The notes: a model not told the origin generated them from the sequence alone. Positions 35,486 through 63,882 are shown, numbered from the stretch's first letter. The stretch: DNA of 64,000 nt from Deltaproteobacteria bacterium HGW-Deltaproteobacteria-2 (GCA_002840505.1 PHBC01000008.1:7193-71192); one strand, 5' to 3'. A program made the numbers and translations.

Positions 35486-35767
35486 ATGGATGAAATATTT
35501 ATAAAAAAAGTGCGGACGGCCGCGTTGGCTGGATGGTGGACTGTTTTAATCGCCTACTGTCTCCTGCTGATTCAATGGGGTGCTTATTTGTTAATTATAC
35601 CCAGGCAGCCGGCAGGAATGCTTTGCTTTTGGGGTGAAGGTGTTACCTGGCAGGAAATCCGCAGTATCTGGTTGTGGGCGATGGTAGCCTATAAGCTTGG
35701 CGTCGTCATGATGATATTTGTCGTCATCTGGCTGACATTTTGGGCAAGACAACTGGCAAAAAAATAG
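35486..35767 (+). CDS. small integral membrane protein (3 TM), unknown function
   Basis: SD AGGAG; hydrophobic helices (WWTVLIAYCLLLIQWGAYLLII, IWLWAMVAYKLGVVMMIFVVIWLTFW). First gene after cassette 1. Confidence 0.55.
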   Translation: MDEIFIKKVRTAALAGWWTVLIAYCLLLIQWGAYLLIIPRQPAGMLCFWGEGVTWQEIRSIWLWAMVAYKLGVVMMIFVVIWLTFWARQLAKK

Positions 35768-35848
35768 AACGGGAAGGTTGAAGAGAAAGGGTGGCCGGAG
35801 CAATTAATTTAAAAAGCATTTCAATACCAACACAAAGAGGGCAATCCA

Positions 35849-37165
35849 ATGAAGGGTAAAGAACTCCGGGTATTAATCGTTGAAGACTCGGAAGATGATG
35901 CGCTGCTTTTAATCCGTGAACTTAAAAAGGGCGGATACAATCCGGTGTATGACCGGGTGGCCAACGCTGTCGCAATGAAAAAAGCCATTCAAGAGAAGAA
36001 ATGGGACATTATTCTTTGCGATTATATAATGCCCGGATTTAATGCTCCTTCAGCCATTCATGTATTGAAGGAAGCAAATGTTGACATTCCTCTCATCGTT
36101 GTATCCGGAACGATCGGTGAAGAAACGGCCATAGAGTGTATGCGTTTCGGCGCCAAAGATTATATCATGAAATCCAATCTGGTCCGTCTTTGCCCGGCCA
36201 TATCCAGAGCACTGGAAGAGGCAGAAATTAAAAATAAGCATAAGCAGGCCCAAGAGTTACTGAACGCTTCGGAAGTCCGGTACAGGCGGCTTTTTGAGTC
36301 AGCAAAAGATGGGATTCTTATCCTTGATTGCGAAACGGGAAAAATTGTTGACGTTAATCCATTTCTGATTGAGCTGCTGGGTTATTCGCGTGAGCAATTC
36401 ATAGAGAAGGCTGTGTGGGAACTGGGGCCATTTAAGGATATTATTCCCAATCGCAACAAATTTCTGGAATTGCAGAGCCAGGAGTATATCCGTTATGATA
36501 ATTTGCCTTTGGAAACCATTGATGGACGGCTTGCCAATGTTGAATTCGTCAGTAATGTCTATGCAGAGGGCAATACCAGGGTAATTCAGTGCAATATTCG
36601 CGATATCACCGAACGTAAAGAAGCGTTGAAAGCGCTGCGGGAAAGCGAAAAACGATACAGGGAACTGAGCATAATCGATGACCTCACGCAGCTTTATAAT
36701 TCCAGGCATTTTTATGCTCAGCTCAAAATAGAAACAGAGCGGTCGAACCGCTATAAACATCCTCTGACCATTCTACTTATGGATATCGACAAATTCAAGG
36801 AGTTCAACGACTCATACGGCCATATTGAAGGGGACAGTGTGTTGTCTCAAATAGGCAAACTGTTGAAAAAATGCCTGCGCGAGAGCGATTCTGCCTATCG
36901 TTATGGCGGCGAGGAATTTACAATCATATTGCCGATGACCACAATCGAAGATGGAACGATAATGGCGGAAAGAATACAAACGGAATTAATGGAAAAGGCC
37001 TTTTCCCCGATATCGGGTCAAAATGTTTATATAACAGCGAGTATCGGTTTTGCTCAGTACATGCCGAATGAAGAGATGAAAGCGTTCGTTCAGCGCGTAG
37101 ACCAACTCATGTACCAGGCTAAGAAGAAAAGGAACCACAGTATTTATTCTGAATTACAGAGTTAA
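35849..37165 (+). CDS. response regulator receiver-PAS-GGDEF diguanylate cyclase
   Basis: REC domain (VLIVEDSEDD...ILCDYIMPG), a PAS domain, and a GGDEF domain with the intact RYGGEEF active-site motif. Confidence 0.85.
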   Translation: MKGKELRVLIVEDSEDDALLLIRELKKGGYNPVYDRVANAVAMKKAIQEKKWDIILCDYIMPGFNAPSAIHVLKEANVDIPLIVVSGTIGEETAIECMRFGAKDYIMKSNLVRLCPAISRALEEAEIKNKHKQAQELLNASEVRYRRLFESAKDGILILDCETGKIVDVNPFLIELLGYSREQFIEKAVWELGPFKDIIPNRNKFLELQSQEYIRYDNLPLETIDGRLANVEFVSNVYAEGNTRVIQCNIRDITERKEALKALRESEKRYRELSIIDDLTQLYNSRHFYAQLKIETERSNRYKHPLTILLMDIDKFKEFNDSYGHIEGDSVLSQIGKLLKKCLRESDSAYRYGGEEFTIILPMTTIEDGTIMAERIQTELMEKAFSPISGQNVYITASIGFAQYMPNEEMKAFVQRVDQLMYQAKKKRNHSIYSELQS

Positions 37166-37182
37166 GAACAATTCAATGCATC

Positions 37183-37331
37183 CCTCAACATGCTGAGGCT
37201 CCACCAAATAATGAGGCCAAACGTATAAATCCATCCTTTTAAACCGGTCTCTTTTGTTAATCTAACCATCCGTTATTAAATAAATAATTAAATATTTTTA
37301 TTTTTCTTCTGCTATTGGCAAGCCATTTGCA
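37183..37331 (+). promoter_or_regulatory. sigma54 promoter cassette 2
   Basis: CCTCAACATGCTGAGG (37183-37198), CCACCAAATAATGAGG (37201-37216), TTAATCTAACCATCCGTTATTAA (37257-37279), and TTGGCAAGCCATTTGCA with GG at 37317-8 and GC at 37329-30. Confidence 0.85.
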
Positions 37332-37362: not shown

Positions 37363-37953
37363 ATGATGAAAACATACTGCAATGCACTATTCATGATCGT
37401 TTTATTGTTGATGTTTACCGGATGCGCCGCTCTTTTGCCGCACAGCACGATAACGACTGAATCACCCTGGCAGGATTTCAATGGTGCCAAATTGACCTAT
37501 GATAAAATTAATCCCGGAGTAACCACGGTGAGTGATCTGAAAAGATTAGGGTTCGATCCTTATTTAACACCAAATATCAAGATAATGAATGTCACGGAGG
37601 TTATCAATCTATTCTTGCCCAATCCCTCTATTAAAAAGGAAGATTTGGATATTGGCATTCAAAAATGCATCGAGAGTAAGGACCGGTGTACGGCCTACCA
37701 GATTTCGCCCAGCAAATTATATGTAAATCGAATAGGTAATTTCTGGTTGGACCTGTTTTCATTCAAGCGCCATACCGTAAATAGCGGATGGGAATTCAAG
37801 GGATTAATCACAATTGTTGATAATGTTGTCACTTACAGAGACCCGCCGGGAGGACGACCCTTAATTAACATGGATCAAATTGACGTTAAGCCTTTAGGGC
37901 CTGCTCAAGAAGCCGGAAGTGCGATCATTGCTACGGTTCCGCTTATCTGGTAG
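37363..37953 (+). CDS. lipoprotein, unknown function
   Basis: Signal peptide with lipobox LMFTGC; SD GGGAGGTGG. Confidence 0.6.
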   Translation: MMKTYCNALFMIVLLLMFTGCAALLPHSTITTESPWQDFNGAKLTYDKINPGVTTVSDLKRLGFDPYLTPNIKIMNVTEVINLFLPNPSIKKEDLDIGIQKCIESKDRCTAYQISPSKLYVNRIGNFWLDLFSFKRHTVNSGWEFKGLITIVDNVVTYRDPPGGRPLINMDQIDVKPLGPAQEAGSAIIATVPLIW

Positions 37954-38041
37954 CGGGATCTAGAAGTCAGAATGCAGAATATTTTTTATTCTGACTCCTG
38001 TATTCTGTATTCTATCTTTTATATTCTTTCTTAAATTTTCC

Positions 38042-38190
38042 CCTCAGCATACTGAGGTTCTACCAAATACTGAGGCCAGACGAATCATCTCATGCTTTCA
38101 CGCTCTTTTCCTTTGTTAATCTATCCACCTGTTATTAAGTGATTAATTCAAAATTATGATTCTTCTTGAGCCATTGGCAGGCTATTTGCT
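38042..38190 (+). promoter_or_regulatory. sigma54 promoter cassette 3
   Basis: CCTCAGCATACTGAGG (38042-38057), CTACCAAATACTGAGG (38060-38075), TTAATCTATCCACCTGTTATTAA (38116-38138), and TTGGCAGGCTATTTGCT with GG at 38176-7 and GC at 38188-9. Confidence 0.85.
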
Positions 38191-38373
38191 CATACATCTA
38201 TAAAGATACTTTTTAATCTTAACCTTCAAGCGAGTTCCTGTTTGTTTTTTAGGAGAGGATTATAAATTACCGAAGGCTACTAAAAGTTTTTTAGGAGCAA
38301 AATAATGAAGGAGATAAGTAACAGAAGATTAATAATCAGCAATTGCAATTTAATAACTTTGAAAGGAGATAAT

Positions 38374-38877
38374 ATGAAAAGATTTAAGACCCAGCAGGCT
38401 TTTTTTACGTTAATTATGTTAGCAGTGAGTATTTTTTTATTTACAGGATGTGGAAGTAGTGATGAGGCCGCGCTGATAACAGCCCCATTCGATTCGGTCC
38501 TCCCCGGAACATGTGGTGAAACGGGACCCAAGGTGGATTCGGCAGATCCCGCTACTGGTGCCGTGGATGTGGCGATCGATACATGGATTACGGCTACCTT
38601 CAGTGAGGCGATGGATCCGACGACGATCGAAGTGACCACTCCCGGAAGCCCAGAGGTGGAGACGTTTACCCTCTATGATAATGACTACCCCGGAATCCCC
38701 ATAGAAGGTACCGTCGAAATGGATGTCACAAACACAATAGCGACCTTTAAGCCAACAGCAGTCCTCGCGAAAGGTACCACGTTTACGGTGACTATTACCA
38801 AGTATGCCAAGAGATTATCAGATAACACCCCACTTGGCTGTAACTATCGATGGGAATTTCAGACGACGGATATTTAA
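38374..38877 (+). CDS. lipoprotein with SbsA/Big_5-type Ig-like domain
   Basis: The ATG at 38374 after GAAAGGAGA gives MKRFKTQQAFFTLIMLAVSIFLFTGC (lipobox). The Ig-like block is PKVDSADPATGAVDVAIDTWITATFSEAMDPTTI. The track start at 38305 is an in-frame upstream ATG. Confidence 0.7.
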   Translation: MKRFKTQQAFFTLIMLAVSIFLFTGCGSSDEAALITAPFDSVLPGTCGETGPKVDSADPATGAVDVAIDTWITATFSEAMDPTTIEVTTPGSPEVETFTLYDNDYPGIPIEGTVEMDVTNTIATFKPTAVLAKGTTFTVTITKYAKRLSDNTPLGCNYRWEFQTTDI

Positions 38878-39069
38878 GGGATGAGGGCGTGAAAAAAGGA
38901 AAAGTTGTGGAGTATCGGGCGAAATTAAGAATATCGTTTAAATATAAACCTGAATAGATTTGTCCCGCCTTTGGCGGGATTGTTCGACTTACAAATTTTA
39001 ATGCGTTTCACTTTTAAAATTTGAGTCTCATAAATAAAAGAATATTAACCAGACAAACAGGAGGAATTT

Positions 39070-39753
39070 ATGAAAAAAATATTTATGTTAGTTGTCGTCA
39101 TGATGTTGATCACTTTCACCTCAGCCGTGCAGGCAGAAGTCAGGGCCGGTGGGTTGCCCGCTCTAGTTGTGGATGATAGGATTAGCGATGGTAACGCCCC
39201 AGCTACGGCACCAGCCAGAGCCGGTGCTTTACCCGCTATTACTGTGGATGAAAGGATCCCTAATTGTACCTGTAAAACAGATCCCTCCTACTGTGCTAAA
39301 CCAGTAGTCGCATCTGCACCAGTTCCGGAACCAGTTCCAGAACCAGCTCCGGTTGTGGTTCCTCCTCCGGCACCAGCTCCCAAGCCAGTTATTATTGAAA
39401 AAGGCAGGCAGACACTTAATGTCGAATTCGATTTTGATAAATCAACCATTAAGAAAGGTTACTATCAAGACATCGATAATCTGGCTGGAGTGATGAAACA
39501 ATATCCCGATCTTAACGTTGCAATCGAAGGACACACCGACAGCATTGGTTCTGATGCTTACAATGAAAAACTTTCCCAGGAAAGAGCTGACGCTGTAAAG
39601 AATTACATGGTTGAGAAAAACGGTATTGATGCAAATCGTATCAAGGCGATTGGTTTTGGTGAGAAACAACCTGTTGCTTCAAACGATACCAGTGAAGGTC
39701 GTGCTCAGAATCGTCGCGTAGAAGCGGCTGTCGATTATAGAATCGAGAAGTAA
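39070..39753 (+). CDS. OmpA-family (OmpA_C peptidoglycan-binding) protein with repeats and a Pro-rich linker
   Basis: Signal peptide; duplicated segment EVRAGGLPALVVDDRI / ARAGALPAITVDERI; a PxP-rich linker; OmpA_C motifs FDFDKSTI...IEGHTDSIGSDAYNEKLSQERADAV...NRRVE. Confidence 0.8.
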   Translation: MKKIFMLVVVMMLITFTSAVQAEVRAGGLPALVVDDRISDGNAPATAPARAGALPAITVDERIPNCTCKTDPSYCAKPVVASAPVPEPVPEPAPVVVPPPAPAPKPVIIEKGRQTLNVEFDFDKSTIKKGYYQDIDNLAGVMKQYPDLNVAIEGHTDSIGSDAYNEKLSQERADAVKNYMVEKNGIDANRIKAIGFGEKQPVASNDTSEGRAQNRRVEAAVDYRIEK

Positions 39754-39784
39754 ATTTTCCGCTTCTGAAGAATTAACAACAATA

Positions 39785-39820
39785 AAGAACCCCGTGGCTT
39801 ACTGCGGGGTTCTTCTTTTT
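39785..39820 (+). terminator. intrinsic terminator
   Basis: AAGAACCCCG-10 nt loop-CGGGGTTCTT followed by CTTTTT. Confidence 0.7.
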
Positions 39821-39973
39821 ACTCATATTTCCATCAGTAATCGCTAATTTATTGTGCTGTCTTCTTTAAAGCGTAGCAGCAAACCCAACAAGCACTTATT
39901 TCTGTTATATTGTTTTTCTTATTTTCTCAATTCAAACAAGATTAGCAGGCTGTCTACCTCCTTTCAAAGAACC

Positions 39974-40122
39974 CCTCAATATACTGAGGTCCCACCAAAT
40001 ACTGAGGGCAAACAAATCATATCATGCTTTTCCACTGTTCTGTCCCACTGATCTAAGCAACTGGTATTATATGATTAATCAATAATTATTATTCATTCGC
40101 ATGTATTGGCAGACTATTTGCT
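39974..40122 (+). promoter_or_regulatory. sigma54 promoter cassette 4
   Basis: CCTCAATATACTGAGG (39974-39989), CCACCAAATACTGAGG (39992-40007), a more diverged AT-rich element (about 40048-40090), and TTGGCAGACTATTTGCT with GG at 40108-9 and GC at 40120-1. Confidence 0.8.
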
Positions 40123-40304
40123 TTTCACCACATTATACTTTTAATTTTACCCCAAGCGCGAGTTCTTCTTATTTTTTGGGGAAGCAGATTATAACTTAAC
40201 GAAAGATACAAAATTATTTTCAGAGGGAGGAATAATGAAGGAGATAGGTATTCGAAAGCTAACAGAAAGCAATTGTAAAATTAATGACTTTGAAAGGGGG
40301 TTAT

Positions 40305-41945
40305 ATGAAAAGATTTAAAGCTCTGCAAGTTTGTCTTGCCTTTATGATGTTAATCCTGGGTGTTTTAATTACAGGATGCGGAAGTAACGGTCAAACCGGT
40401 CATTGGTTACCAACACCAGGTATTCCGGTAGACACCACCAGACCCAGAGTGTTTTCCACCGTTCCTGCCACGACAGTTCCCGGTCCAACTACTGGCGTGC
40501 CGACCAACACATTAATTACGGCACTTTTTACTGAGGAAATGGACCAGGCATCGATTCAGGCAGCCGGTACTGTCACGGTGACATGTACGCCGTCTTGCGT
40601 GAATGGTGCCACTCTCGCCGGCACTGTAAGCTACGCAGTAGGCAGTAAAACCATGGTCTTCACGCCAACGCCGGTACCAACACTGCTTGAGGCCAGCAAG
40701 ACCTATACTGTCACTATTACCACCGCGGCCACCGACGTGATAGGCAATCAACTTGCGGGCAATCAAGCCGCCTTGCCCGCGGCAAGTGCCTACATATGGA
40801 GCTTTACCACCGCAGACGCTCCCATACCGGCGGCAAATATAACAGTGGCTTCGGTCTTCCCTGTTGATACTGCCCCGTCTGTATGTCCCAGCTCGAGCAT
40901 CAGCGCGACCTTCACCGTGCCTGATCCTTTACTAAAGATTAACCCTCTAACGGTCACTGCGGCAACTTTCATCGTGACGGGACCGGGGGTGAGTGGACCA
41001 GTCGTCGCAGCAGCGGCAATCGATGGCCGGACTGTTGATAGCACAGGTCTCATTGCGACCTTTAAGCCCGCCGCCCCTCTCACTCCGGGTCTTTATACGG
41101 TCACAATTAAAAGCGGGGCCGCCCCTGCCGGGGTTGAAGACACAGCTATTCCTGGCGACCAACTGGCAGCTGACTACACATGGACATTTACCGTAGCTCC
41201 AGCGACAGGGCTTTGTATAGCGACGATACCTCTTGGAGCGACGGTCGAGACGTTCGGAGCTCTTTCCTGCGCCGCGATCAGCGGTAGTACAGTGGGGACC
41301 GGAACCACGGTTAACGGAAATATCGGGACAACACTGACGAGCACTTCTGTAACCAATTGGGTTGGCGGCGGCTCTCCTGCCACACCCGGAATCGTGAACG
41401 GGACGATATTTGCTTCGGACCTTCCGGTTGCCGGCGATACGACATCGGCCACTGCCGTCAACGAAGCGTATACCGCGTTTCTGGCCGCACAAACCGTGGG
41501 AGCATCGGGTACCGTGATACCAACAAGCGATCTTGGCGCAGAAACCGCGTTCGGAGACGGTAACCCCGGGGTCTTCTACGCCGGCGCCTATACGTCCGGG
41601 TCTTCGATTGCGATCAGTACCCCTGTTACACTCGATGCCCAGGGCGACGCTAATGCGGTCTGGATCTTCTATTCACCTAGCAGCACCTTGACCACCACGG
41701 GGCCGCTTGGAAATATTATCCTCCTGAACAATGCCCAGGCGAAAAACGTCTTTTGGGTGGTCGGCAGTTCAGCCACACTTGGAGCACCGCTCTTCAGCGG
41801 AAACGTACTGGCTGCCACAGCAATCTCGGTGACTTCCGCAGGCCCAGGAATCATAGATGGGAGACTGTTGACTTCAGGGCCGACCTGTGCCGCGGTTTCA
41901 TTCTCGGGCGCCGGAGCCGGTACAGTTAACGTACCTGGTCTGTAA
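40305..41945 (+). CDS. lipoprotein: tandem SbsA/Big_5-type Ig-like domains plus a C-terminal DUF3494 (ice-binding-like) beta-solenoid domain
   Basis: The ATG at 40305 gives MKRFKALQVCLAFMMLILGVLITGC (lipobox). Ig-like block DTTRPRVFSTVPA...LITALFTEEMDQASI. The C-terminal pattern LGATVETFGALS....VNGNIG...AYTAF...PGVFYAGAYT....LDAQGDANAVWIF...NAQAKNVFWVVGSSATLG...GNVLA...GRLL matches the DUF3494 pattern as I recall it. Confidence 0.7.
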   Translation: MKRFKALQVCLAFMMLILGVLITGCGSNGQTGHWLPTPGIPVDTTRPRVFSTVPATTVPGPTTGVPTNTLITALFTEEMDQASIQAAGTVTVTCTPSCVNGATLAGTVSYAVGSKTMVFTPTPVPTLLEASKTYTVTITTAATDVIGNQLAGNQAALPAASAYIWSFTTADAPIPAANITVASVFPVDTAPSVCPSSSISATFTVPDPLLKINPLTVTAATFIVTGPGVSGPVVAAAAIDGRTVDSTGLIATFKPAAPLTPGLYTVTIKSGAAPAGVEDTAIPGDQLAADYTWTFTVAPATGLCIATIPLGATVETFGALSCAAISGSTVGTGTTVNGNIGTTLTSTSVTNWVGGGSPATPGIVNGTIFASDLPVAGDTTSATAVNEAYTAFLAAQTVGASGTVIPTSDLGAETAFGDGNPGVFYAGAYTSGSSIAISTPVTLDAQGDANAVWIFYSPSSTLTTTGPLGNIILLNNAQAKNVFWVVGSSATLGAPLFSGNVLAATAISVTSAGPGIIDGRLLTSGPTCAAVSFSGAGAGTVNVPGL

Positions 41946-42126
41946 GGCATGAGGTATTCGATATGAAAGCAGGCAAAAGGGAAGACAGGTTGTTTATCAT
42001 AATTCATCCGCTCTCCTTTTGCCTTGCTGCAACGCTTCGTTCTTTGAGCACTAAGATGTCTCCTGCGGCTTATTTGAAGAGCCGCAGGGGCAGCAGCTAA
42101 ACGCGACAATATAAAGGAGGACTACA

Positions 42127-43212
42127 ATGAAATCAATGTATCGTACAGCAATGATAATAGCTGTCTTTGTTTTTTTATTACCCTTATCTGTTCGCTCCGA
42201 GATAAGGGCCGGAAGTTTTGAAGTGAATCCGTTCATCGGATACAACTTCTTCCAAAACAGTCAGAATCTGAAAGACGCGGTAATATATGGTGGTCGGCTT
42301 GGCTACAATTTCACGAGGTATTTTGGTGTTGAAGTCGGTGGGGAATTTATACGAACTAATCTTGATGATAAGGCAAAATTGGATAACACGGAAGGACAGT
42401 TCGGATATCCCATGGATAAAGTGGATTTTTATAAGTATAATATTAATGCCGTCCTTCACTTAATTCCCGATGGCAGATTCAATCCCTTTATCGTTGTCGG
42501 ATTCGGAGGAGCCCACTATAGTCCATCGATATCAAATGGCGGAGACATGTCTGCCTTTAATGTTGGTTTAGGAGCGAAAATCTGGCTGACGGAAAATATC
42601 GCTCTTAGATTCGATGTTCAGGATTATATGGTTACCGAAATATTTCAGGAGACCTACCATAATATTGGAGTTACCGGTGGAATAGTTTTTGCGTTCGGCG
42701 GCGCGGCAAAGCCTGAGCCTGTGGCGAAGGCTGAACCGGTACCCGAGCCCATACCTGAACCTCCTCCTCCCGTAGTCATACAAAAGGTTGAACCTCCTCC
42801 TCCTCCTCCTCCTCCTCCTCCTCCTCCTCCTCCTCCTCCCAAGCCAGTCATTATTGAAAAAGGCAGACAGACGCTGGATGTAAAATTTAATTTTGATAAA
42901 TCAACCATTAAGGAGGGTTATTACAACGACATCGATAATCTGTCTGGAGTGATGAAAGATTATCCCGATCTTAAAGTCGTGATCGAAGGACATACGGATA
43001 GTGTCGGTACAAAGGCTTATAATAAAAACCTTTCCCAGGAACGAGCTGACGCTGTCAAGAATTACATGGTTGAGAAAAACGGTATTGATTCAAATCGTAT
43101 AGCAACAGAAGGTTTCGGAGAGGAAAAACCTATTGCTGATAATGCCACTGCAGAAGGTCGTGCTCAGAACCGTCGAGTGGAAGCAGCTGTTGATTATACA
43201 ATCAAGAAGTAA
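42127..43212 (+). CDS. OmpA-like outer-membrane protein: N-terminal beta-barrel, poly-proline linker, OmpA_C domain
   Basis: Signal peptide; beta-barrel-type alternating pattern (GYNFF...GGRLGYNFT..FGVEVGGEF); a run of consecutive prolines; an OmpA_C domain near-identical to that of 39070..39753. Confidence 0.85.
   Translation: MKSMYRTAMIIAVFVFLLPLSVRSEIRAGSFEVNPFIGYNFFQNSQNLKDAVIYGGRLGYNFTRYFGVEVGGEFIRTNLDDKAKLDNTEGQFGYPMDKVDFYKYNINAVLHLIPDGRFNPFIVVGFGGAHYSPSISNGGDMSAFNVGLGAKIWLTENIALRFDVQDYMVTEIFQETYHNIGVTGGIVFAFGGAAKPEPVAKAEPVPEPIPEPPPPVVIQKVEPPPPPPPPPPPPPPPPKPVIIEKGRQTLDVKFNFDKSTIKEGYYNDIDNLSGVMKDYPDLKVVIEGHTDSVGTKAYNKNLSQERADAVKNYMVEKNGIDSNRIATEGFGEEKPIADNATAEGRAQNRRVEAAVDYTIKK
42793..42837 (+). 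repeat. perfect (CCT)15 trinucleotide microsatellite encoding the poly-Pro linker
   Basis: Counted directly: 15 uninterrupted CCT units from 42793, followed by CCC. Confidence 0.9.
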
Positions 43213-43240
43213 ATATTCTTTTTCTAATAACTTAACAATA

Positions 43241-43275
43241 CTGAAGAACCCCAGGCTTACTGCGGGGTTCTTCAG
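43241..43275 (+). terminator. terminator-like hairpin, paralogous to the one at 39785
   Basis: CTGAAGAACCCC-11 nt loop-GGGGTTCTTCAG, with the loop core GGCTTACTGC shared with the 39785 hairpin. No clear U-tract. Confidence 0.45.
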
Positions 43276-43305
43276 TGAGAAATAAAAAGAGAGTATTACG
43301 CGTGA

Positions 43306-43383
43306 TGCGAAGCAGCTCCTGAAAAGCTTTATTCAAGGGCCGCGAAGTTAAACATGAGAGTTCTTTTTGAAATATTCGTGTAA
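43306..43383 (+). pseudogene. orphan 3' fragment (last 25 codons plus stop) of an OmpA/Pal-like gene paralogous to 44113..44682
   Basis: Reads CEAAPEKLYSRAAKLNMRVLFEIFV*, compared with YEAAPKELYSKAAKSNMRVLFEIVVR* at the end of 44113..44682. No upstream coding part exists. Confidence 0.6.
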
Positions 43384-43524
43384 TAGGAGTAGCGGGTTAA
43401 TGTTCCAAAAAGATGTTTTATAAGAAAGGAGTCGCGCTGGTGGACGGCATTGTGCTGCTGGTTGCGAGAAGCAGAAAAGACTTAAAGATAGACAAAACTT
43501 CTAATGTGTAAAGGAGACAAAAAA

Positions 43525-44046
43525 ATGAAAAAGTTATTTTTTGGAACATTATTTTTGGCGCTGGTCATTGTATTGCCTGCGCCGGCGATGGCAGAGGTGC
43601 GTGTAAATGTCGGTATTTCTCTGCCGCCCATCGCATTTCCGGGGCCGCCCCATCTGGTTGTAATACCTCAGACGAATGTTTATGCCGTGCCTGACGTGGA
43701 CGCGGACATCTTCTTCTATGGTGGTTGGTGGTGGCGTCCTTGGGAAGGCCGCTGGTATCGTTCGCGGAGCTATGACGCCGGCTGGCGCCATTATCGTGGG
43801 CGTCCATCTTTTCATCGCAGCGTACCCTCCGGTTGGAGGAATGACTACAGAGAGAGTCGCTGGAGAGGGCGTGAATGGAATCAACAAAGAGTCCCCCACG
43901 ATCAAGTTCAGCGGAACTGGAGAACATGGGAACGAAATAGGCATTGGCAGAAACAAAATAATTGGGGTGTCCAGAGTTCGAGGGGTGCCCGAAAGCGATC
44001 ACAACAGCAACAACAACAGGGAAACCATGAAAGAGGAAGAAGGTAG
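43525..44046 (+). CDS. secreted Trp/Arg-rich protein, unknown function
   Basis: The ATG at 43525 after AAGGAG gives a signal peptide ...PAPAMA. The mature part is rich in W/R/Y (FFYGGWWWRPWEGRWYRSRSYDAGWRHYRGR) and has a Q-run near the C-terminus. Confidence 0.55.
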   Translation: MKKLFFGTLFLALVIVLPAPAMAEVRVNVGISLPPIAFPGPPHLVVIPQTNVYAVPDVDADIFFYGGWWWRPWEGRWYRSRSYDAGWRHYRGRPSFHRSVPSGWRNDYRESRWRGREWNQQRVPHDQVQRNWRTWERNRHWQKQNNWGVQSSRGARKRSQQQQQQGNHERGRR

Positions 44047-44112
44047 AGAAACATGATTTCTTAAGGAAATATTCTGGATGTGCAAACAAAAAATTAAACA
44101 GGAGGTTTAAAA

Positions 44113-44682: not shown

Positions 44683-44702
44683 CAGCATCTGGTTATCGGG
44701 TT

Positions 44703-44747
44703 AAGAGTCCGGAAAGATGTTTTACATCAATCCGGACTCTTGCGTTT
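44703..44747 (+). terminator. terminator-like hairpin
   Basis: AAGAGTCCGGA-17 nt loop-TCCGGACTCTT followed by GCGTTT. Confidence 0.5.
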
Positions 44748-44835
44748 AATAAATAGTATGGAAAAGGCTAAGGTATGTCGGCAATAGAACACGGGAAGTG
44801 GACAGGCTTATTAGCTTACTTAGGAAGAATAATCC

Positions 44836-47190: not shown

Positions 47191-47225
47191 ACATAGAATT
47201 ATTAAGATAATCGTGGAGAGAAAAG

Positions 47226-48875: not shown

Positions 48876-48912
48876 GGAGATCAGCATCTAATCCACCATT
48901 CTTCAAAGTATC

Positions 48913-51187: not shown

Positions 51188-51239
51188 TTGCAATTCCCTA
51201 TAGAAGAGATCAACAACAAACAAAAAAGGAGAAAAAGTT

Positions 51240-51572: not shown

Positions 51573-51626
51573 TAACGACCATCCAATCCTTGCTGTGGTT
51601 GGCATTACAAACAAAGGGGATTAATT

Positions 51627-53741: not shown

Positions 53742-53856
53742 CCGCAAGTTCAATGCTAAGCTGGAGCGTTGGACAGAAAAAGAAGTGAATGAAACAAGTC
53801 ATGTTATGATTTTACACAGGACTTTAATGGCAGGGTCTTAGAAAAAGGCGTTAGCT

Positions 53857-54540: not shown

Positions 54541-54546
54541 ACTGAA

Positions 54547-55779: not shown

Positions 55780-55831
55780 GTGGATAGATGTGACATGAAA
55801 GATTGACGGGTACAAGGAGCATGTTAAGTTA

Positions 55832-57211
55832 TTGCTGAATAATAATTCCCTGTGGTCATTTTTTTCTTCTGTGAAACTGACAATTACGCTTCTCGTGTTA
55901 ATTGTCCTTGTCTTCATTGCCGCCACCTTCTTGCCGACGTATGACGTTGTTCAAACATTTGCCAGACGGCTTTCGCCGGGAGCAGTTCAAATTATTCTCT
56001 TCTTTCGTTTCTTCAATCTTTATCATTCTTTGCTATTCTATTTCCTGATGACACTTCTATCGCTTAACTTGATAATCTGTTCGATAAATCGTTTCCCCGG
56101 ATTATGGAAGCAATACAAAGTTCCGCCTTTACCGGAACCGGCCGGTATCTTCGAGAATCTTCCACGGGTCCAGATTATTACGGAAGATAAAGCAATCAGC
56201 AAAATAAAACTGATCGTAAAATCAAGCCTGAAAAAACAATATCGATCCGGCAAAGAAGCTGAGACGGAAAAAGGATCCATTTTTTATGCTGAAAGGGGGC
56301 GTTTCTCTCTCTTTGGTGTTTACATTATTCACTTGAGCATTTTAGTGATGATGGCGGGAGCGATTATCGGCTCCATCTTTGGCATGGAAGCCGATATCAA
56401 TATTAAAGAAGGTGAAACGATCAATCTTGCCAGTCTGACGAAAGGCAATGGAATACACGATCTGGGTTTTTCAGTCCGCTGCGATAAATTTATCGTCGAA
56501 TTTTACGAAGACGGCACTCCGAAAACATATCGCTCGGATTTAAGCTTCATCAAAAACGGAAACGTTGAAAAACAGGGATCACTGCTGGTCAATCATCCCT
56601 TAACCTTCGACAAGTTCCGTTTTTACCAGTCCAGCTACGGTGTCGCGCCGGAAAGCAAGGCAATACTCACATACACGGTTGCCGGTAAGAAGAGCGGCTC
56701 CATGGCGCTCGTCGCTGGAGATACTTTTGATTTGCCGGAGGGCAAAGCCAGGGGCTTTGTCATGCGTGTTGAAGAAAACATGATGCAGTGGGGGCAAGCC
56801 GTAAAGTTGAGAATTATTTCCCCGAAAAAGGATATCCAGTTCTGGGTTTTTTACCAACTTGACAAACTTTTAGCCTTGAAACCAAATCTCTTGACGGAAG
56901 CGCCGATGTTCAATCCCGGTCTTTTTGCACCCTTTGTTTTTTCCATTGACCGGGTCGAACAGACTTATTACACCGGTTTGCACATCGTCCGTGATCCCGG
57001 TGTTCCCCTTGTTGTGCTGGGAGGAGTGCTCATGATCACAGGTTTAATAATCGTCTTTTTTATGTCGTACCAACAGTTTTGGGTGCTGATAGAGCAAGAA
57101 GGAGCGCAAATCAGCATCAGCATTTCCGGCAGGAGCAACCGGAATAACCAGCAGATACAAAACAAAATAGATTGTTTGCGCGGGCAAATCAGCGAGGAGT
57201 TGGAAGCATGA
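55832..57211 (+). CDS. resB: cytochrome c biogenesis protein ResB/Ccs1 (system II)
   Basis: N-terminal pattern FFSSVKLTITLLVLIVLVFIAATF, a large soluble loop, a C-terminal TM, and translational coupling to ccsA. Confidence 0.75.
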   Translation: MLNNNSLWSFFSSVKLTITLLVLIVLVFIAATFLPTYDVVQTFARRLSPGAVQIILFFRFFNLYHSLLFYFLMTLLSLNLIICSINRFPGLWKQYKVPPLPEPAGIFENLPRVQIITEDKAISKIKLIVKSSLKKQYRSGKEAETEKGSIFYAERGRFSLFGVYIIHLSILVMMAGAIIGSIFGMEADINIKEGETINLASLTKGNGIHDLGFSVRCDKFIVEFYEDGTPKTYRSDLSFIKNGNVEKQGSLLVNHPLTFDKFRFYQSSYGVAPESKAILTYTVAGKKSGSMALVAGDTFDLPEGKARGFVMRVEENMMQWGQAVKLRIISPKKDIQFWVFYQLDKLLALKPNLLTEAPMFNPGLFAPFVFSIDRVEQTYYTGLHIVRDPGVPLVVLGGVLMITGLIIVFFMSYQQFWVLIEQEGAQISISISGRSNRNNQQIQNKIDCLRGQISEELEA

Positions 57212-58056
57212 ACCACACGATGATTTTAAGCTGGGTGACTTTTATCTATTTTGCTTCCTTCGTCTTCTATCTGCTTCGGTTGATTTCCGGAAAAGAATTC
57301 TGGGGACGCGCCGCCTCTTTTTTAGTCTGTGCGGGATTTGCCGCGCAAACGATTGGTCTGCTTCTCAGATGGAGAACCTCTTACAGCCTGGGCATTGGAC
57401 ATGTGCCTCTGGCCAACCTTTACGAATCCATGGTCTTTTTTTCCTGGGCCATCATTCTGATTTATCTGATTATGGAATGGCAAATTAAAAGCAGGATTAT
57501 CGGCGTCTTTGTCGTACCGATGGCATTTCTGGCTCTGGCCTATGCCTCCATCGCGCCGGGCATCAATAGTCGTATCGAGCCCCTCATTCCGGCTTTGCAA
57601 AGCAATTGGCTGACCACCCATGTCGTAACCTGTTTTATGGGATATGCCGCATTTGCCATTGCCTTTGGCTGCGGTTTAATCTATCTGCTGAAAAGCATGG
57701 GGAAAGGTAATGAAGAAAAACCAGCAGGATTTTTAGAAAAACTACCCGCCTTGGCAACGCTGGATGGATTAATTTATCAGAGCATCGTTCTCGGTTTTGT
57801 TTTTCTCACCATCGGAATCATGACGGGGTCCATCTGGGCGCATTACGCCTGGGGTTCTTACTGGAGCTGGGACCCCAAAGAGACATGGTCGCTGATCACC
57901 TGGATTATCTACGCGATTATGCTGCATTCGCGGCATGTCCGGGGCTGGCGGGGAAAGCGCATGGCAATCCTTGCCCTCATAGGGTTTGCCTGTGTTCTGT
58001 TCACCTATCTTGGCGTGAATTATCTTCCCGGTTTGCACAGTTATCTCCGGGCATAA
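57208..58056 (+). CDS. ccsA: cytochrome c assembly protein CcsA/ResC
   Basis: Trp-rich haem-handling motif WGSYWSWDPKETWSLITW; polytopic membrane protein. The ATG at 57208 overlaps the resB stop (ATGA). Confidence 0.85.
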   Translation: MNHTMILSWVTFIYFASFVFYLLRLISGKEFWGRAASFLVCAGFAAQTIGLLLRWRTSYSLGIGHVPLANLYESMVFFSWAIILIYLIMEWQIKSRIIGVFVVPMAFLALAYASIAPGINSRIEPLIPALQSNWLTTHVVTCFMGYAAFAIAFGCGLIYLLKSMGKGNEEKPAGFLEKLPALATLDGLIYQSIVLGFVFLTIGIMTGSIWAHYAWGSYWSWDPKETWSLITWIIYAIMLHSRHVRGWRGKRMAILALIGFACVLFTYLGVNYLPGLHSYLRA

Positions 58057-58083
58057 AACCAATGTTGCCCTTTCACTAGTATC

Positions 58084-58232
58084 CCTCAACATGCTGAGGC
58101 TCCGCCAAATACTGAGGCCAAATGAATCATTCATGCTTGGTGGGCTGTTCCCTTCTGTTAATCTAACCAACTGTTATTAAAGCATGAAACAGAACTTATA
58201 ATTCTCTTCGGGGTGTTGGCAGGCTACTTGCT
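58084..58232 (+). promoter_or_regulatory. sigma54 promoter cassette 6
   Basis: CCTCAACATGCTGAGG (58084-58099), CCGCCAAATACTGAGG (58102-58117), TTAATCTAACCAACTGTTATTAA (58158-58180), and TTGGCAGGCTACTTGCT with GG at 58218-9 and GC at 58230-1. Confidence 0.85.
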
Positions 58233-58288
58233 ATTAGATGTGTACGAACATTTTTGTCATGCGAATTAATGTCCTCTATGGGAAGCGC

Positions 58289-58525
58289 ATGGAGTTGTCA
58301 CAGATGTTCAAGAAGGGGTTTGTCATGAAATGGACAGGTATTTATCTTATTGGTTATATCATTTTGATTGGTGGTCTTCTTGCCGCGTTATGGAAAATGG
58401 GTATTCTGGCCAGCATCGGTACGACATGGACATTGATCGGCGTTGTGATCACAATCGGTGTTGGCATCATGCTCGCAGTCACCAGTAGCGGCAGCAAAGA
58501 GAAAATTGAAATCGGCCGGAAGTGA
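58289..58525 (+). CDS. small two-TM membrane protein
   Basis: In-frame starts at 58289 (MELSQ...) or 58325 (MKWTG...). Hydrophobic core IYLIGYIILIGGLLAALW / LIGVVITIGVGIMLAV. Confidence 0.55.
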   Translation: MELSQMFKKGFVMKWTGIYLIGYIILIGGLLAALWKMGILASIGTTWTLIGVVITIGVGIMLAVTSSGSKEKIEIGRK

Positions 58526-58635
58526 AATGCCAGGTTTTTGAAGCATGATGGCCGAAGAGTTAAGCCGTAACTCCGGTGTCGCAATGCATCAGGAAAATAT
58601 CGGCTCAGGTAAAGCCGAGAAAGGAGACAAGTGCC

Positions 58636-58770
58636 ATGCAAATCGCTATATCGCCACAGCCGGTGGTTTCTCTAATTGCGGGAATATTGATTTTTATTTT
58701 CCCGAAACTATTAAATTATATCGTTGCCATCTATCTCATTGTCATTGGCATTCTCGGATTGATCCGATGA
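58636..58770 (+). CDS. small membrane protein (DUF3096-like)
   Basis: SD AAAGGAGA. The 44-aa product is MQIAISPQPVVSLIAGILIFIFPKLLNYIVAIYLIVIGILGLIR. Confidence 0.55.
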   Translation: MQIAISPQPVVSLIAGILIFIFPKLLNYIVAIYLIVIGILGLIR

Positions 58771-58848
58771 GTGGCTTACGGATCTTATACGAAGGTAACC
58801 TTATAACTACGAAACAAGAGGGTTAAATAACAGTAAAGGAGGAAAAAT

Positions 58849-59001
58849 ATGGGCACAATACTGATTGTAATTTTGGTACTCATTCTTGTCGGCGCACTAC
58901 CCACCTGGCCTCATAGTAAGAACTGGGGATACTATCCCAGTGGTGGAGTTGGATTGATTCTTCTGATTCTGCTCATTCTGTTACTGATGGGGCGGATCTG
59001 A
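58849..59001 (+). CDS. small membrane protein (DUF3309-like)
   Basis: SD AAGGAGG. The 50-aa product is MGTILIVILVLILVGALPTWPHSKNWGYYPSGGVGLILLILLILLLMGRI. Below the ORF-track size cutoff. Confidence 0.6.
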   Translation: MGTILIVILVLILVGALPTWPHSKNWGYYPSGGVGLILLILLILLLMGRI

Positions 59002-59245
59002 GATAAGTTTAGCGCGCAGCGCTTCAAGGTATTCCGGGAGGGTGAGGAACCCTCTTAAGGAGTCCTATGAAAGTTGGCATTCTCGGAGTTGTCCGATGAT
59101 TGGCTTGCAAATCTTCTCTTATTCCATACTGGGAAATTAGCATCTCAGTGGCAAGGAGAGTTAGGAGAGATTGCTCTCCGCAGGTTATTGGACTCATCTC
59201 CGCTGGAAGAAAATAAGAAAATCAACGTAAAAAGGAGAATTTAAT

Positions 59246-59563
59246 ATGGAAGAGCAAGAGGGAACAAAAGTTAATTTTTTCAAGGGATTATTAATTGGAG
59301 GCGCATTGGGCGCATTGGCAGGCATTCTCTTTGCACCAAAATCAGGAAAAGAGCTGAGATCGGATATCAAGAAGAAAGGGAACAAGATTATAAAGGATGG
59401 ACAGGAAATTTATGCCGATGCCAGCACGAAAGCAAAAGAGATTTTTGTGGAAGTCAGGGATAAAGCAAAGGAGTTGAAGAAGGAAGCCGAAGACGCCGGT
59501 GAAAAGATGTCCGACGAAGTTCATGAAAAGATGGGGCAGGTCAAAAAGGTTTTTGGGAGGTAG
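59246..59563 (+). CDS. YtxH-domain general stress protein
   Basis: FFKGLLIGGALGALAGILFAPKSGKELRSDIKKKG followed by a K/E-rich helix, which is the typical YtxH architecture. Confidence 0.75.
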   Translation: MEEQEGTKVNFFKGLLIGGALGALAGILFAPKSGKELRSDIKKKGNKIIKDGQEIYADASTKAKEIFVEVRDKAKELKKEAEDAGEKMSDEVHEKMGQVKKVFGR

Positions 59564-59789
59564 TGAGAGAGCGGCGTATCATATAACCACGTGTTCGGTT
59601 TTTTACAGGTAAAGGATATGTCCATAAAAAGAGGGGTCGTTATGAAAAGTTTTATGCCGGATATAGAGAGTTGCACTAATAAGAATGACTATTTTCAGCG
59701 GGTACTTTTCACGACAAAACAGACGAAATATAGAGTCAACTGCGCGCAATAACGCGCTCAGTATTTGTTCAACATAGAGGAGGATCATC

Positions 59790-60074
59790 ATGAGATATTT
59801 ATTTGTAATTGTATTGGCACTGTCGGTGCTGGCATTTAGCGCTTGTGAACGACCGACGACAGTGGAAGCCCCTGATACCGTTGTGGTCACACCTCCCGGA
59901 CCTGCAGGAGCACCAGGAGCACAAGGTGCACAGGGAGTACAAGGAGCACAGGGAGTGACGGAAAAAGGCGAAACCGGTTCGACCGGAGCCACGGGTGCCG
60001 AAGGTGCCAAGGGAGATCAGGGTCGTAAGGGTAATACCGGTGGTGACACGATAGTAGTTGTTCCAGATCGCTGA
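59790..60074 (+). CDS. small lipoprotein with collagen-like Gly-X-Y repeats
   Basis: Lipobox LAFSAC. Gly-X-Y tracts GPAGAPGAQGAQGVQGAQG and GETGSTGATGAEGAKGDQGRKGNTG, separated by a short break (VTEK). Confidence 0.65.
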   Translation: MRYLFVIVLALSVLAFSACERPTTVEAPDTVVVTPPGPAGAPGAQGAQGVQGAQGVTEKGETGSTGATGAEGAKGDQGRKGNTGGDTIVVVPDR

Positions 60075-60099
60075 TGGGGTTGCTTAAGAGACTAAATAA

Positions 60100-60227
60100 T
60101 TTATTTGTGAAACTCCAATTTAGAAAGCGAAGCACAGCGGAATTGGTAAGTTGAATCCCGACACTGTCGGGACGAAGCGGAGGGTATAATGCCCCGCAGT
60201 TTGCTTTGGGGTTTATAACCGTGATTT
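60100..60227 (-). repeat. intergenic element, copy B (inverted relative to 50404-50552)
   Basis: The reverse complement begins AAATCACGGTTATAAACCCCAAAGCAAACTGCGG and ends CTAAATTGGAGTTTCACAAATAAA. Confidence 0.6.
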
Positions 60228-60258
60228 ATTAACGAAATACAACAAAAGGGGAAATAAA

Positions 60259-60813
60259 ATGAAACATGCAAGAATTAAAATTATTTTCATTACGTGCGTC
60301 GTCGCGATTATAGGAATCTTTTCGGTTTCCTCTTACGCGGCTACGGCCAATGAGATCGATGCCAGAGTAAATGCGTCCCTCGACCGGTTTGTCAATGAAG
60401 TCAAGGGTGCGCAGGAGTTTCTTAATGCCGCCAAGGGAGTTCTTATCGTCCCTAAAGTCATACAGGGTGGACTTGTAGTCGGAGCCGAGTATGGTGAAGG
60501 AGCCTTAAGGATAGGAGGTAAAACGGTCAGTTATTACAACATTATTTCCGGGTCTTTCGGCTATCAGATCGGAGCTCAGGAGAAGGACATCATTCTTGTG
60601 TTCATGAGCGATAAGGTATTAAAGAAATTCCGTAACAGTAAAAACTGGAAAGCGGGTGTTGATGCCAAGGTAACCGTGGCCAATGTCGGTGCCGACGGTT
60701 CTATAAACACTTTAAATATTAAGCAGCCCATTGTCGGGTTTGTCTTTAGTCAGAAAGGGCTTATGGCCGGTGCCACGATAGAAGGTTCAAAATTTACGAA
60801 ATTGAAAAAATAA
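60259..60813 (+). CDS. SYLF (Ysc84/DUF500) lipid-binding domain protein, secreted
   Basis: Signal peptide. The pattern AKGVLIVPKVIQGGLVVGAEYGEGAL...SGSFGYQIGAQEKDIILVFMS...GVDAKVTVA...GLMAGATIEGSK fits the SYLF fold family as I recall it. Confidence 0.65.
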   Translation: MKHARIKIIFITCVVAIIGIFSVSSYAATANEIDARVNASLDRFVNEVKGAQEFLNAAKGVLIVPKVIQGGLVVGAEYGEGALRIGGKTVSYYNIISGSFGYQIGAQEKDIILVFMSDKVLKKFRNSKNWKAGVDAKVTVANVGADGSINTLNIKQPIVGFVFSQKGLMAGATIEGSKFTKLKK

Positions 60814-63017: not shown

Positions 63018-63082
63018 ACCATAAGATAATTGTTTTCACTAAGACGATATTTGCAATAAAAACAAGTTGGAAAGGAGATTGT

Positions 63083-63532
63083 ATGATTTCAAAAATTCTT
63101 GTGCCATCAGATGGATCAAAAACAGCTAAAAAAGCAGTTGTGTACGCGGTTGATCTTGCCAAACAATTGAAAGCTTCAATTATTATCCTGAGCGTTATTG
63201 ATCAGAGGTCACTAATAGCTAACACAGTCTCCGCATCGGAAACTCCACGGCACACAATAGAGCCTATTGATGATTATCTGAAAGAGGCTGCCGAAGGATT
63301 TGCCGGAGAAATAAAAAAACTGTGCGATAAAAACGGTGTCGCATCTTCAATTTCTATTAAGAAGGGGCATCCGGTGGAGGAGATTGTGAAGGAGGCCAAG
63401 AGATCCAAGGCCGATCTTATTGTTATGGGTTCCCATGGAAGAAGCGCCTTATCAGCCACAGTCCTTGGTAGTGTATCCTATGGTGTTATCCATAATGATA
63501 AAAGTATTCACGTGCTCATTGTGAGGGGTTGA
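63083..63532 (+). CDS. universal stress protein (UspA family)
   Basis: ILVPSDGSKTAKKAVVYAVDLA...ADLIVMGSHGRSALSATVLGSVSYGVIHN. Confidence 0.85.
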   Translation: MISKILVPSDGSKTAKKAVVYAVDLAKQLKASIIILSVIDQRSLIANTVSASETPRHTIEPIDDYLKEAAEGFAGEIKKLCDKNGVASSISIKKGHPVEEIVKEAKRSKADLIVMGSHGRSALSATVLGSVSYGVIHNDKSIHVLIVRG

Positions 63533-63579
63533 TTGCAATAGGACACGAACCCAAAAGGATGTAATAAAGGAGAATAAAC

Positions 63580-63882
63580 ATGCCAGAGTTCGGATCGCCC
63601 TTTTCAGGGTTAGCAAACGACAGGATGCTCACAAATGAGGAACTCATCAGAGCAATTCGTTTCATGGTGGCAGCAGAGTACGAAGCGATTCAGTTGTATA
63701 TGCAGCTTGCCGAGTCAACCGACAATACGCTTGCCGTGGAAGTACTCAAAGACATAGCTGATGAAGAACGCGTTCACGCAGGAGAGTTTCTGCGATTGCT
63801 CCACGCACTTGCTCCCGATGAAAAAAAGTTCTATTTTAAGGGGGCGAAAGAAGTAGAAATAGAAATCAAGAAAAAGAAGTAG
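63580..63882 (+). CDS. small ferritin-like/rubrerythrin-family protein (encapsulated-ferritin-like fold)
   Basis: LTNEELIRAIRFMVAAEYEAIQLYMQLAE...VLKDIADEERVHAGEFLRLL gives an E...ExxH di-iron-type pattern in a 100-aa protein. Confidence 0.55.
   Translation: MPEFGSPFSGLANDRMLTNEELIRAIRFMVAAEYEAIQLYMQLAESTDNTLAVEVLKDIADEERVHAGEFLRLLHALAPDEKKFYFKGAKEVEIEIKKKK

Follow-up and report, generated by a model that had tools for sequence, protein, structure and literature searches.

The window analysed here is a stretch of 64,000 nucleotides (PHBC01000008.1:7193-71192, assembly GCA_002840505.1) from Deltaproteobacteria bacterium HGW-Deltaproteobacteria-2, an uncultured, non-phototrophic anaerobe whose sequence comes from a groundwater metagenome. 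Window proteins were 82-95% identical to those of contigs labelled Smithella or Smithellaceae, or to Smithella-like genes in bins with unrelated labels; Smithella is placed in the Syntrophales (Thermodesulfobacteriota). Gene identities were assigned via Pfam and NCBIfam, and all assigned genes from kaiC (26120) to the window end lie on the + strand. This part of the window carries a kai module, two genes encoding sigma54 enhancer-binding proteins (EBP1 and EBP2), and six copies of a cassette of about 150 nt, each a predicted sigma54 promoter with a common enhancer, ahead of genes for envelope and small stress-type proteins. Sequence stretches used for comparison, mostly cassette loci of relatives, are designated by L-numbers (L009, L136, etc.); L123 covers the region beyond the window end.

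Cassette 1 (35270..35417, profile E=3e-34) begins 60 nt after EBP2 and precedes genes for a 93-aa membrane protein with hydrophobic segments and a REC-PAS-GGDEF diguanylate cyclase (35486..37165; GGDEF E=2e-45). Cassette 2 (37182..37330, E=5e-43) is followed by a 196-aa lipoprotein without family match (37363..37953; lipobox FTGC), an orthologue of which lies behind a cassette in L039. The unit of cassette 3 (38041..38189, E=4e-43) encodes a Big_5 lipoprotein and an OmpA-domain protein, OmpA1 (38305..39814), and ends in a strong intrinsic terminator (39785-39814, +; 13-bp stem and T run). Cassette 4 (39973..40121, E=3e-42) precedes a second Big_5 lipoprotein, which also bears an Ice_binding domain, and an OmpA beta-barrel protein (OmpA2); its unit (40284..48875) probably continues through a 180-aa protein, an OmpA lipoprotein, a fatty-acid cis/trans isomerase (CTI) and a malic enzyme. 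Behind cassette 5 (48912..49057, E=1e-41) lies a gene for a CsbD-like protein (49131..49313; Pfam CsbD E=6e-14), and cassette 6 (58083..58231, E=4e-46), the best fit to the family profile, precedes small membrane proteins, DUF3309 and YtxH, its unit probably running on via a collagen-like lipoprotein to SYLF/Ysc84 (58325..60813). Every one of these features is on the + strand. The analysis bore out the genes that the original prediction had placed behind the cassettes (the membrane protein with REC-PAS-GGDEF, the 196-aa lipoprotein, Big_5 with OmpA twice, CsbD, DUF3309 and YtxH), with the exception of DUF3096, for which there was no match. A seventh cassette was located by profile search about 4.3 kb past the window end (L123 15133-15308).

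The six cassettes aligned across about 150 nt, were about 70% alike and were all intergenic, 33-163 nt ahead of a + strand start codon. From 5' to 3' each contained an upstream activating sequence (UAS) palindrome, a second half-palindromic site, a conserved AT-rich block and a -24/-12 element. The UAS is a 16-bp palindrome, CCTCA-N6-TGAGG (CCCTCA-N6-TGAGG), and the half-palindromic site (CCRCC-N6-TGAGG) is centred 18 nt past it. The AT-rich element (TTAATCTAAC...GTTATTAA) lies about 40 nt upstream of the -24 element, and the sigma54 -24/-12 element, TTGGCA-N6-TTGC, about 133 nt downstream of the UAS; that of cassette 1, TTGGCCTACTATTTGC, was the weakest match among the six. GG-N10-GC was present in six of six cassettes, with 1-2 mismatches to TGGCAC-N5-TTGC; this exact sequence had no match in the window, the cassettes having TGGCAG/A instead. 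The family consensus TTGGCAGGCTATTTGCT agrees in 14 of 17 positions with that of Geobacter, TTGGCACGGTTTTTGCT (PMC2725144).

Both elements were far more frequent than expected by chance: the UAS pattern matched 11 times in the window (0.16 expected) and the -24/-12 pattern 8 times (1.58 expected), counts that shuffled sequences never equalled. A profile built from 114 cassettes found exactly six matches in the window (E<=3e-34) and no degenerate extra copies, and the six cassettes were the only intergenic sigma54-like sites of the region (up to 2 mismatches to TGGCAC-N5-TTGC). The same intergenic scan found no such site before wrbA, katE, SYLF, Usp or kaiC. Judged by sequence, the cassettes have the full anatomy of EBP-dependent sigma54 promoters, and promoter activity is predicted. 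The earlier claim of sigma54/EBP promoter cassettes at this locus was therefore confirmed for all six, which stood above the shuffled controls and whose architecture is kept in relatives. The AT-rich element is probably a site for a bending protein, or otherwise for a second regulator. Rfam gave no match in the window.

Conservation was assessed in a set of at least 120 stretches obtained by scanning species-representative genomes with the UAS pattern; all locus counts given here are among the matches listed. Almost all stretches came from metagenome-assembled genomes (MAGs) of Smithella, Smithellaceae, Syntrophaceae, Syntrophus or other Thermodesulfobacteriota. TGGCA-N6-TTGC was found 130-135 nt downstream of the UAS (mode 133) in 109 of the 129 copies with enough downstream sequence, compared with 1% of random windows, and the other 20 mostly had near-variants of the -24/-12 element at the same position. 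In the alignment of 114 cassettes the AT-rich and -24/-12 elements were as conserved as the UAS, though neither had belonged to the search pattern. The profile detected at least 168 cassettes in the 120 loci listed, and one Smithella MAG had at least 10. Five contigs with Smithella-like cassettes and genes (L114, L008, L089, L050 and L013; up to 95% protein identity to the window) carried the bin labels Kiritimatiellae, Nitrososphaerota, Bacillota, Methylobacillus and Bacteriovoracaceae, which are probably binning errors.

The candidate activators of the cassettes are encoded upstream of them. EBP1 (28626..30248, +) consists of a PAS domain, a coiled coil, a sigma54 AAA+ domain with the GAFTGA motif and an HTH_8 domain; EBP2 (33216..35210, +) is its paralogue (PAS-AAA+-HTH_8), with a longer and different PAS sensor region. 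The two proteins were 81% identical over 383 aa comprising the coiled-coil linker, AAA+ and HTH (Sigma54_activat E~1e-69, GAFTGA intact, recognition region of HTH_8 near-identical), their N-terminal sensor regions were unrelated, and both were clear homologues of solved NtrC, ZraR and PspF-type activators. A cassette lay within 300 nt 3' of the C-terminus of an EBP with this HTH, on the same strand and usually at 18-28 nt, in 35 of 39 cases, a proportion inflated by the choice of loci for carrying the UAS. The EBP1 orthologue in relatives ends about 20-40 nt before a cassette, and the order EBP1-CheBR-EBP2-cassette recurs in L053, with a variant in L042. From this adjacency, which even so gives the strongest indication of the cognate regulator, we infer that EBP1 and EBP2 are the cognate activators of the cassettes. 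The sensor modules of these EBPs comprised REC, REC-PAS, PAS, PAS-PAS and GAF-PAS3; since the DNA-reading helix is nearly the same and the sensors differ, several signals would converge on one promoter type. The simplest reading is that paralogous activators with a shared enhancer bring different signals.

A gene for a CheB-CheR-PAS_10 fusion protein (30282..33035, +) lies between the two activator genes. Its position is kept in L053, L042 and L038, there was no obvious methyl-accepting partner, and its product may modify a signalling protein of the pathway.

The kai genes end 10 nt before EBP1. KaiC (26120..27874, +; Pfam KaiC E=9e-115; PDB 8dba E=5e-195), of the kaiC2 subgroup, has two KaiC domains, a C-terminal coiled-coil extension and Ser-Ser phosphosites, and aligned to the R. 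sphaeroides KaiC 8dba over residues 14-560, including the extension and the SS motif. These two features define a KaiA-independent hourglass that responds to ATP/ADP (PMC10076222). Two kaiB genes follow kaiC, at 27877..28200 (+; Pfam KaiB E=8e-28; orthologues 83-94% identical in six cassette loci) and 28271..28615 (+; Pfam KaiB E=5e-26; adjoining KaiB1 and the EBP in relatives too), and no kaiA was found in the window. The order kaiC-kaiB-kaiB-EBP-cassette was seen in L009, L016, L052, L065, L074 and L079; the window has it too, with CheBR and EBP2 lying between EBP1 and the cassette. Neither the intergenic scan nor the profile search detected a cassette or sigma54 site before kaiC. A phage-like module lies directly upstream of kaiC (window 1-25265): it encodes a Big_2 protein, a cell-wall hydrolase, a tail fibre (Mtd_N and Collar domains) and a giant protein of 4951 aa that bears both an Eco57I-type methylase and an SNF2 helicase domain.

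Whether the Kai proteins feed into the cassettes is the point on which the competing interpretation is strongest. The kai genes may be accidental neighbours or serve another output, with the EBPs sensing redox, oxygen or a partner kinase through their own PAS, REC or GAF domains, and we give this not much less than an even chance. Where 3 kb or more of sequence was available upstream of an EBP-cassette junction, kaiB preceded it in only 5 of 17 cases and CheBR in 1 of 17, leaving 11 with neither; this led us to reject Kai as universal input or master switch. Those EBP paralogues whose sensors are of the REC or GAF-PAS kind do not depend on Kai, and family searches found no known Kai-binding domain (SasA-N or PsR type) in EBP1. 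Against an accidental association, kaiC-kaiB-kaiB-EBP-cassette is kept in at least seven loci, with proteins 68-94% identical to those of the window and tight spacing (gaps of 2-70 nt in the window), and the kai cluster contains no other output gene such as a histidine kinase or response regulator. Kai is therefore retained as one candidate input. A fuller model, in which a KaiA-independent KaiBC hourglass reading ATP/ADP directly would gate a sigma54 activator and, with sister activators having the same DNA-binding helix, turn on a regulon of general stress and envelope genes in syntrophic anaerobes short of energy, is tentative and on present grounds rather unlikely. Literature searches returned no description of Kai tied to a sigma54 activator.

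The genes downstream of the cassettes were mainly of two kinds, envelope proteins and small stress-type proteins. The first downstream open reading frames (ORFs; 102 scanned) included ABM (23), BON (6), CsbD (5), OmpA (3), LTXXQ (3), histidine kinases (3) and sigma70-family proteins (2), as well as DUF948, DUF5670, DUF4398 and Pirin. Second and third ORFs included OmpA (7), BON (5), Ysc84/SYLF (4), Ice_binding (3) and Band_7, i.e. SPFH (3), and also ABC transporters, response regulators and penicillin-binding proteins (PBPs). This content was strongly directional when equal 2.5-kb spans on the same strand were compared downstream and upstream of the cassettes: ABM 36 and 2, BON 20 and 3, YtxH 16 and 4, CsbD 11 and 2, OmpA 10 and 2, Usp 6 and 0, SYLF 6 and 1, respectively. 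Mainly upstream were KaiB (0 and 5) and complete EBP genes (7 and 11). CsbD and YtxH are classic members of the SigB regulon, BON/OsmY and the CsbD-like YjbJ belong to the RpoS regulon, and Usp is a general-stress family. The overlap with RpoS and SigB families (CsbD, YtxH, BON/OsmY), together with the conservation of the cassettes, suggests that the cassette-driven genes form a conserved regulon, apparently one not described before. One regulator class would stand over many dispersed operons of protective type, an arrangement typical of general stress responses, and the system may be one; the differing sensor modules of the EBP paralogues would fit the induction by several unrelated stresses or starvation, with cross-protection, that marks such responses. 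The original prediction had proposed a general-stress and envelope regulon run by sigma54: this held for the cassette-driven genes and some of their neighbours, and failed for wrbA and katE, the hallmarks of RpoS. A sigma70-family gene (regions 1.2, 2 and 4) stands behind a cassette in 2 of the 102 first ORFs, one of them at L111 6704-7486 (-), which hints at a sigma cascade beneath the sigma54 regulon.

The same gene content could instead reflect a programme devoted to the cell surface or to aggregation (outer-membrane anchoring, adhesin-like Big_5/Ice_binding lipoproteins, c-di-GMP) and not a general stress response. Four of the six window cassettes precede lipoproteins, OmpA or the GGDEF protein, the seventh precedes DUF6600 and a PBP, and OmpA, Ice_binding, PBPs and SPFH recur downstream of cassettes elsewhere; control of the bacterial exterior is also a described theme of sigma54 (Francke et al. 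2011, PMC3162934). However, the commonest targets were cytoplasmic or small stress-type proteins (ABM 36, YtxH 16, CsbD 11 and Usp 6 cassettes), BON/OsmY, LTXXQ and sigma70-family genes were targets too, and so varied a set of sensor modules speaks for many inputs. We consider a pure surface programme unlikely.

The neighbours of the cassette-driven genes fell into two groups. Cassette-180aa-OmpA-CTI was found in L114 and L054, with the malic enzyme next in L114; in L035 the cassette upstream of CTI lies directly before the 180-aa gene; and L039 has cassette-Big_5/Ice_binding-OmpA-180aa-OmpA with no cassette in between, as in the window. OmpA2 is followed by a hairpin that lacks a T run, and together with the gene orders of relatives this suggests that transcription from cassette 4 may extend as far as the malic enzyme. 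SYLF stands behind cassette-DUF3309-YtxH in L049 and behind cassette-DUF3309 in L021, with the same order in L127 and L136; Usp is directly behind a cassette in L066 and L082, and the ferritin-like gene in L112. The proposal that the neighbours share the regulon was accordingly upheld for CTI and the malic enzyme, SYLF, Usp and the ferritin-like gene, whose orthologues lie behind cassettes in relatives. It was not upheld for wrbA-DUF326-katE or for resB and ccsA, which had no sigma54 site and were found in none of the 120 cassette loci listed; wrbA and DUF326, moreover, have decayed in L136.

The wrbA segment (50570..58056, +) comprises co-directional genes for WrbA (an equivalog-level call), DUF326, KatE (a large-subunit catalase), a DJ-1-type protein, a 410-aa secreted protein, ResB and CcsA. 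Family searches supported the predicted identities of WrbA, DUF326, KatE, DJ-1, CTI, malic enzyme, SYLF, Usp and the ferritin-like protein; the 410-aa product, called catalase-related, was weakly backed, with a faint likeness to haemoproteins of that kind (the Pfam match, E=0.004, fell short of the cutoff; PDB 3e4w, E=0.006). This protein, in the stretch 54547-58056, is paired with DJ-1 in at least eight relatives; behind it come resB and ccsA, which belong to system II of cytochrome c biogenesis. The original prediction did not mention ResB and CcsA (55832-58056), a TIGR03768 metallophosphoesterase, a third OmpA lipoprotein, the 180-aa family or the remains of genes that lie between CsbD and wrbA.

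Read-through could in principle make the whole island from 35.4 to 63.9 kb one sigma54 general stress regulon including wrbA, katE, DJ-1, resB/ccsA and Usp. All genes are on the + strand from kaiC onward, the only strong terminator predicted follows OmpA1, and none was predicted on the + strand between cassette 5 and wrbA, so that read-through from cassette 5 into wrbA and katE is possible; L136 also has a cassette upstream of its wrbA remnant, and DJ-1 and the 410-aa gene lie inside the cassette island in at least eight relatives. The sigma70 and terminator scans otherwise performed at chance level, and operon ends were undecidable by them. The comparative data pointed the other way. No homologues of wrbA, DUF326, katE, resB or ccsA were found among the 120 cassette loci listed; in L136 the flanking cassettes are kept, wrbA and DUF326 persist only as fragments (93% and 88% identical in DNA) and no katE was detected; and the gap of about 1.2 kb between CsbD and wrbA holds remains of genes and a dispersed repeat. 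In the eight or more relatives, neither DJ-1 nor the 410-aa gene was ever directly behind a cassette, and DJ-1 had one convergent homologue among the cassette loci listed. A single regulon over the entire island is thus distinctly improbable; most likely wrbA-DUF326-katE...ccsA is a separate oxidative-stress and haem unit lying inside the island.

At the 3' end of the window the gene order is SYLF, TIGR03768 metallophosphoesterase, Usp and a ferritin-like gene; the last two (63083..63882, +) have no cassette in the window. The ferritin-like protein (63580-63882) is an encapsulin cargo protein of the EncB family, and no encapsulin shell gene was found in the window or the next 10 kb. Between Usp and the seventh cassette lie the ferritin-like gene, DUF5329, PLD-type and metallo-beta-lactamase-fold proteins and one gene on the opposite strand; the seventh cassette is followed by the DUF6600 protein, a bifunctional PBP and a GDSL lipase.

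The island is built by segmental duplication. The units of cassettes 3 and 4 and the OmpA genes are paralogous duplicates: the 3' parts of two OmpA genes (39360-39793 vs. 42819-43252) were 85% identical, and the 3' end of the OmpA-lipoprotein gene is repeated after OmpA2 (43308-43399 vs. 44604-44695). Directly after cassettes 5 and 6 there are N-terminal remnants of an ABM gene (first 15-30 codons; 49070-49165 and 58250-58303; for example MRINVLYGKRMELSQ vs. IRMNVLSEKRVELSQ), indicating that cassettes were copied with the start of an ABM gene and then captured new genes, and suggesting that they spread as a unit of cassette and ABM gene start. Such spreading, and the presence of several copies about 70% alike, might be expected of selfish dispersed repeats resembling miniature inverted-repeat transposable elements (MITEs) without regulatory function, a very improbable explanation, as the cassettes are always intergenic and face the downstream gene, are conserved in the UAS, AT-rich and -24/-12 blocks at fixed spacing while the linkers vary, are kept across orders in non-homologous flanks and have no terminal inverted repeats.

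Other debris was seen between CsbD and wrbA (49314-50218): a second short CsbD-like ORF, a 100-aa N-terminal fragment of an acyl-CoA dehydrogenase and a 66-aa rubredoxin-like ORF. A dispersed intergenic repeat of about 150 nt occurs at 50403-50560 (+) and 60096-60240 (-), flanking the wrbA...YtxH segment in inverted orientation, with a weaker copy at 38960-39040 and further copies in L136 (17974-18099), L049, L096 and L014. Contigs of wetland metatranscriptomes had very high depth at 60082-60215, overlapping this repeat. The repeat matched no Rfam family and its fold was not significant (z = -0.48), which makes a structured RNA unlikely; an element like a MITE or a repetitive extragenic palindrome, or an abundant RNA, are candidates.

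We favour, with moderate confidence, the interpretation that the six cassettes are sigma54 promoters with one common enhancer, activated by a dedicated EBP family and with an envelope and stress output, the wrbA...ccsA block being separate. Dimers of this family (here EBP1 and EBP2) would bind the tandem sites CCCTCA-N6-TGAGG and CCRCC-N6-TGAGG, located some 150 and 130 nt ahead of the start, the AT-rich element would probably be bound by a DNA-bending protein, and the AAA+ ring, with its GAFTGA loop, would open the closed complex of the sigma54 holoenzyme at TTGGCA-N6-TTGC. Inducing signals would enter through the sensors: the PAS domain beside KaiC-KaiB-KaiB, that beside CheB-CheR-PAS and, in relatives, REC, PAS-PAS and GAF-PAS modules. 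The output in the window would consist of OmpA-type and Big_5 lipoproteins, CsbD, YtxH, DUF3309 and the c-di-GMP cyclase, probably with CTI, malic enzyme and SYLF; relatives would add ABM, BON/OsmY, LTXXQ, SPFH, Usp and PBPs.

Several points weigh against this interpretation, besides the inflated EBP adjacency on which the choice of activators rests, the minority of junctions linked to Kai and the features that would allow read-through into wrbA. No rpoN gene was found in the 64-kb window, and it would lie outside. Compared by eye with the E. coli consensus WATCAANNNNTTR for integration host factor (IHF), the AT-rich element had at least 2 mismatches in either orientation and was rejected as a canonical IHF site. 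ORF calling was crude, and no family was assigned to many downstream ORFs. The sequencing runs of the source metagenome were of DNA; metatranscriptomes contained contigs of relatives at 85-95% identity, which show expression of the genes in wetlands but neither start sites nor operon structure.

Among known systems, the closest in promoter anatomy are the PspF/sigma54 phage-shock system and the regulons of single EBPs (ZraR, NtrC; Desulfovibrio, PMC4641369). They share the -24/-12 element, upstream palindromic enhancers with an AT-rich element between (bending is presumed), a GAFTGA AAA+ activator with a Fis-type HTH encoded beside its target, and an envelope or stress output. The locus described here differs in that each genome has far more of these promoters (7 within 33 kb here, and 10 or more in one MAG), in a rigid 133-nt geometry duplicated as a unit, in several paralogous EBPs that have one HTH and differ in their sensors alone, and in a gene content like that of RpoS and SigB regulons instead of psp genes. 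The general stress responses of E. coli (RpoS), Bacillus (SigB) and Alphaproteobacteria (EcfG/PhyR) share target families with the cassettes and likewise combine many inputs with one promoter class. Unlike these, the system would use sigma54 with ATP-driven activation, integration would take place at the EBPs and not by partner switching or proteolysis, and, in contrast to RpoS, katE and wrbA are not linked to a cassette. RsbM is a CheR-type methyltransferase. The RsbK-RsbY-RsbM/SigB system of Bacillus cereus (PMC9912610 for RsbKY) therefore offers a parallel for a methyltransferase of this type in a stress-signalling cluster, but here it is a CheB-CheR-PAS fusion encoded between two EBP genes. 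With the KaiBC hourglass of R. sphaeroides and Rhodopseudomonas palustris (PMC10076222, PMC4794148) the locus shares a full-length KaiC match, adjacent kaiB and the absence of kaiA; it differs in having two kaiB genes, in belonging to a non-phototrophic groundwater anaerobe and in having a sigma54 activator gene next to it. Output factors of non-cyanobacterial Kai systems have been reported as missing or unknown (PMC5520375). Literature searches found no sigma54 general stress response described for Deltaproteobacteria, Smithella or Syntrophus.

What appears to be new in these non-phototrophic anaerobes, as far as sequence can tell, is a conserved sigma54 regulon that has numerous promoters and multiple inputs, contains stress and envelope genes and is linked in part to a KaiBC hourglass. 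Should the fuller model given above hold, this would be the first general stress response built on sigma54 and not on a sigma70-family factor, and a non-cyanobacterial Kai system would for the first time have a defined transcriptional output. Behind kaiBC come the gene of a sigma54 activator and its likely target promoter, which offers an output path that is concrete and can be tested. Paralogous activators with a shared enhancer and different sensors would be an unusual form of signal integration. Smithella and Syntrophus, which are difficult to culture, have a key part as syntrophs in the methanogenic breakdown of hydrocarbons and fatty acids; with a single recognisable promoter cassette, their stress and envelope regulon can be identified in MAGs and traced in metatranscriptomes. 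A sigma54 promoter that stays tightly off and is gated by ATP may be well suited to life close to the thermodynamic limit.

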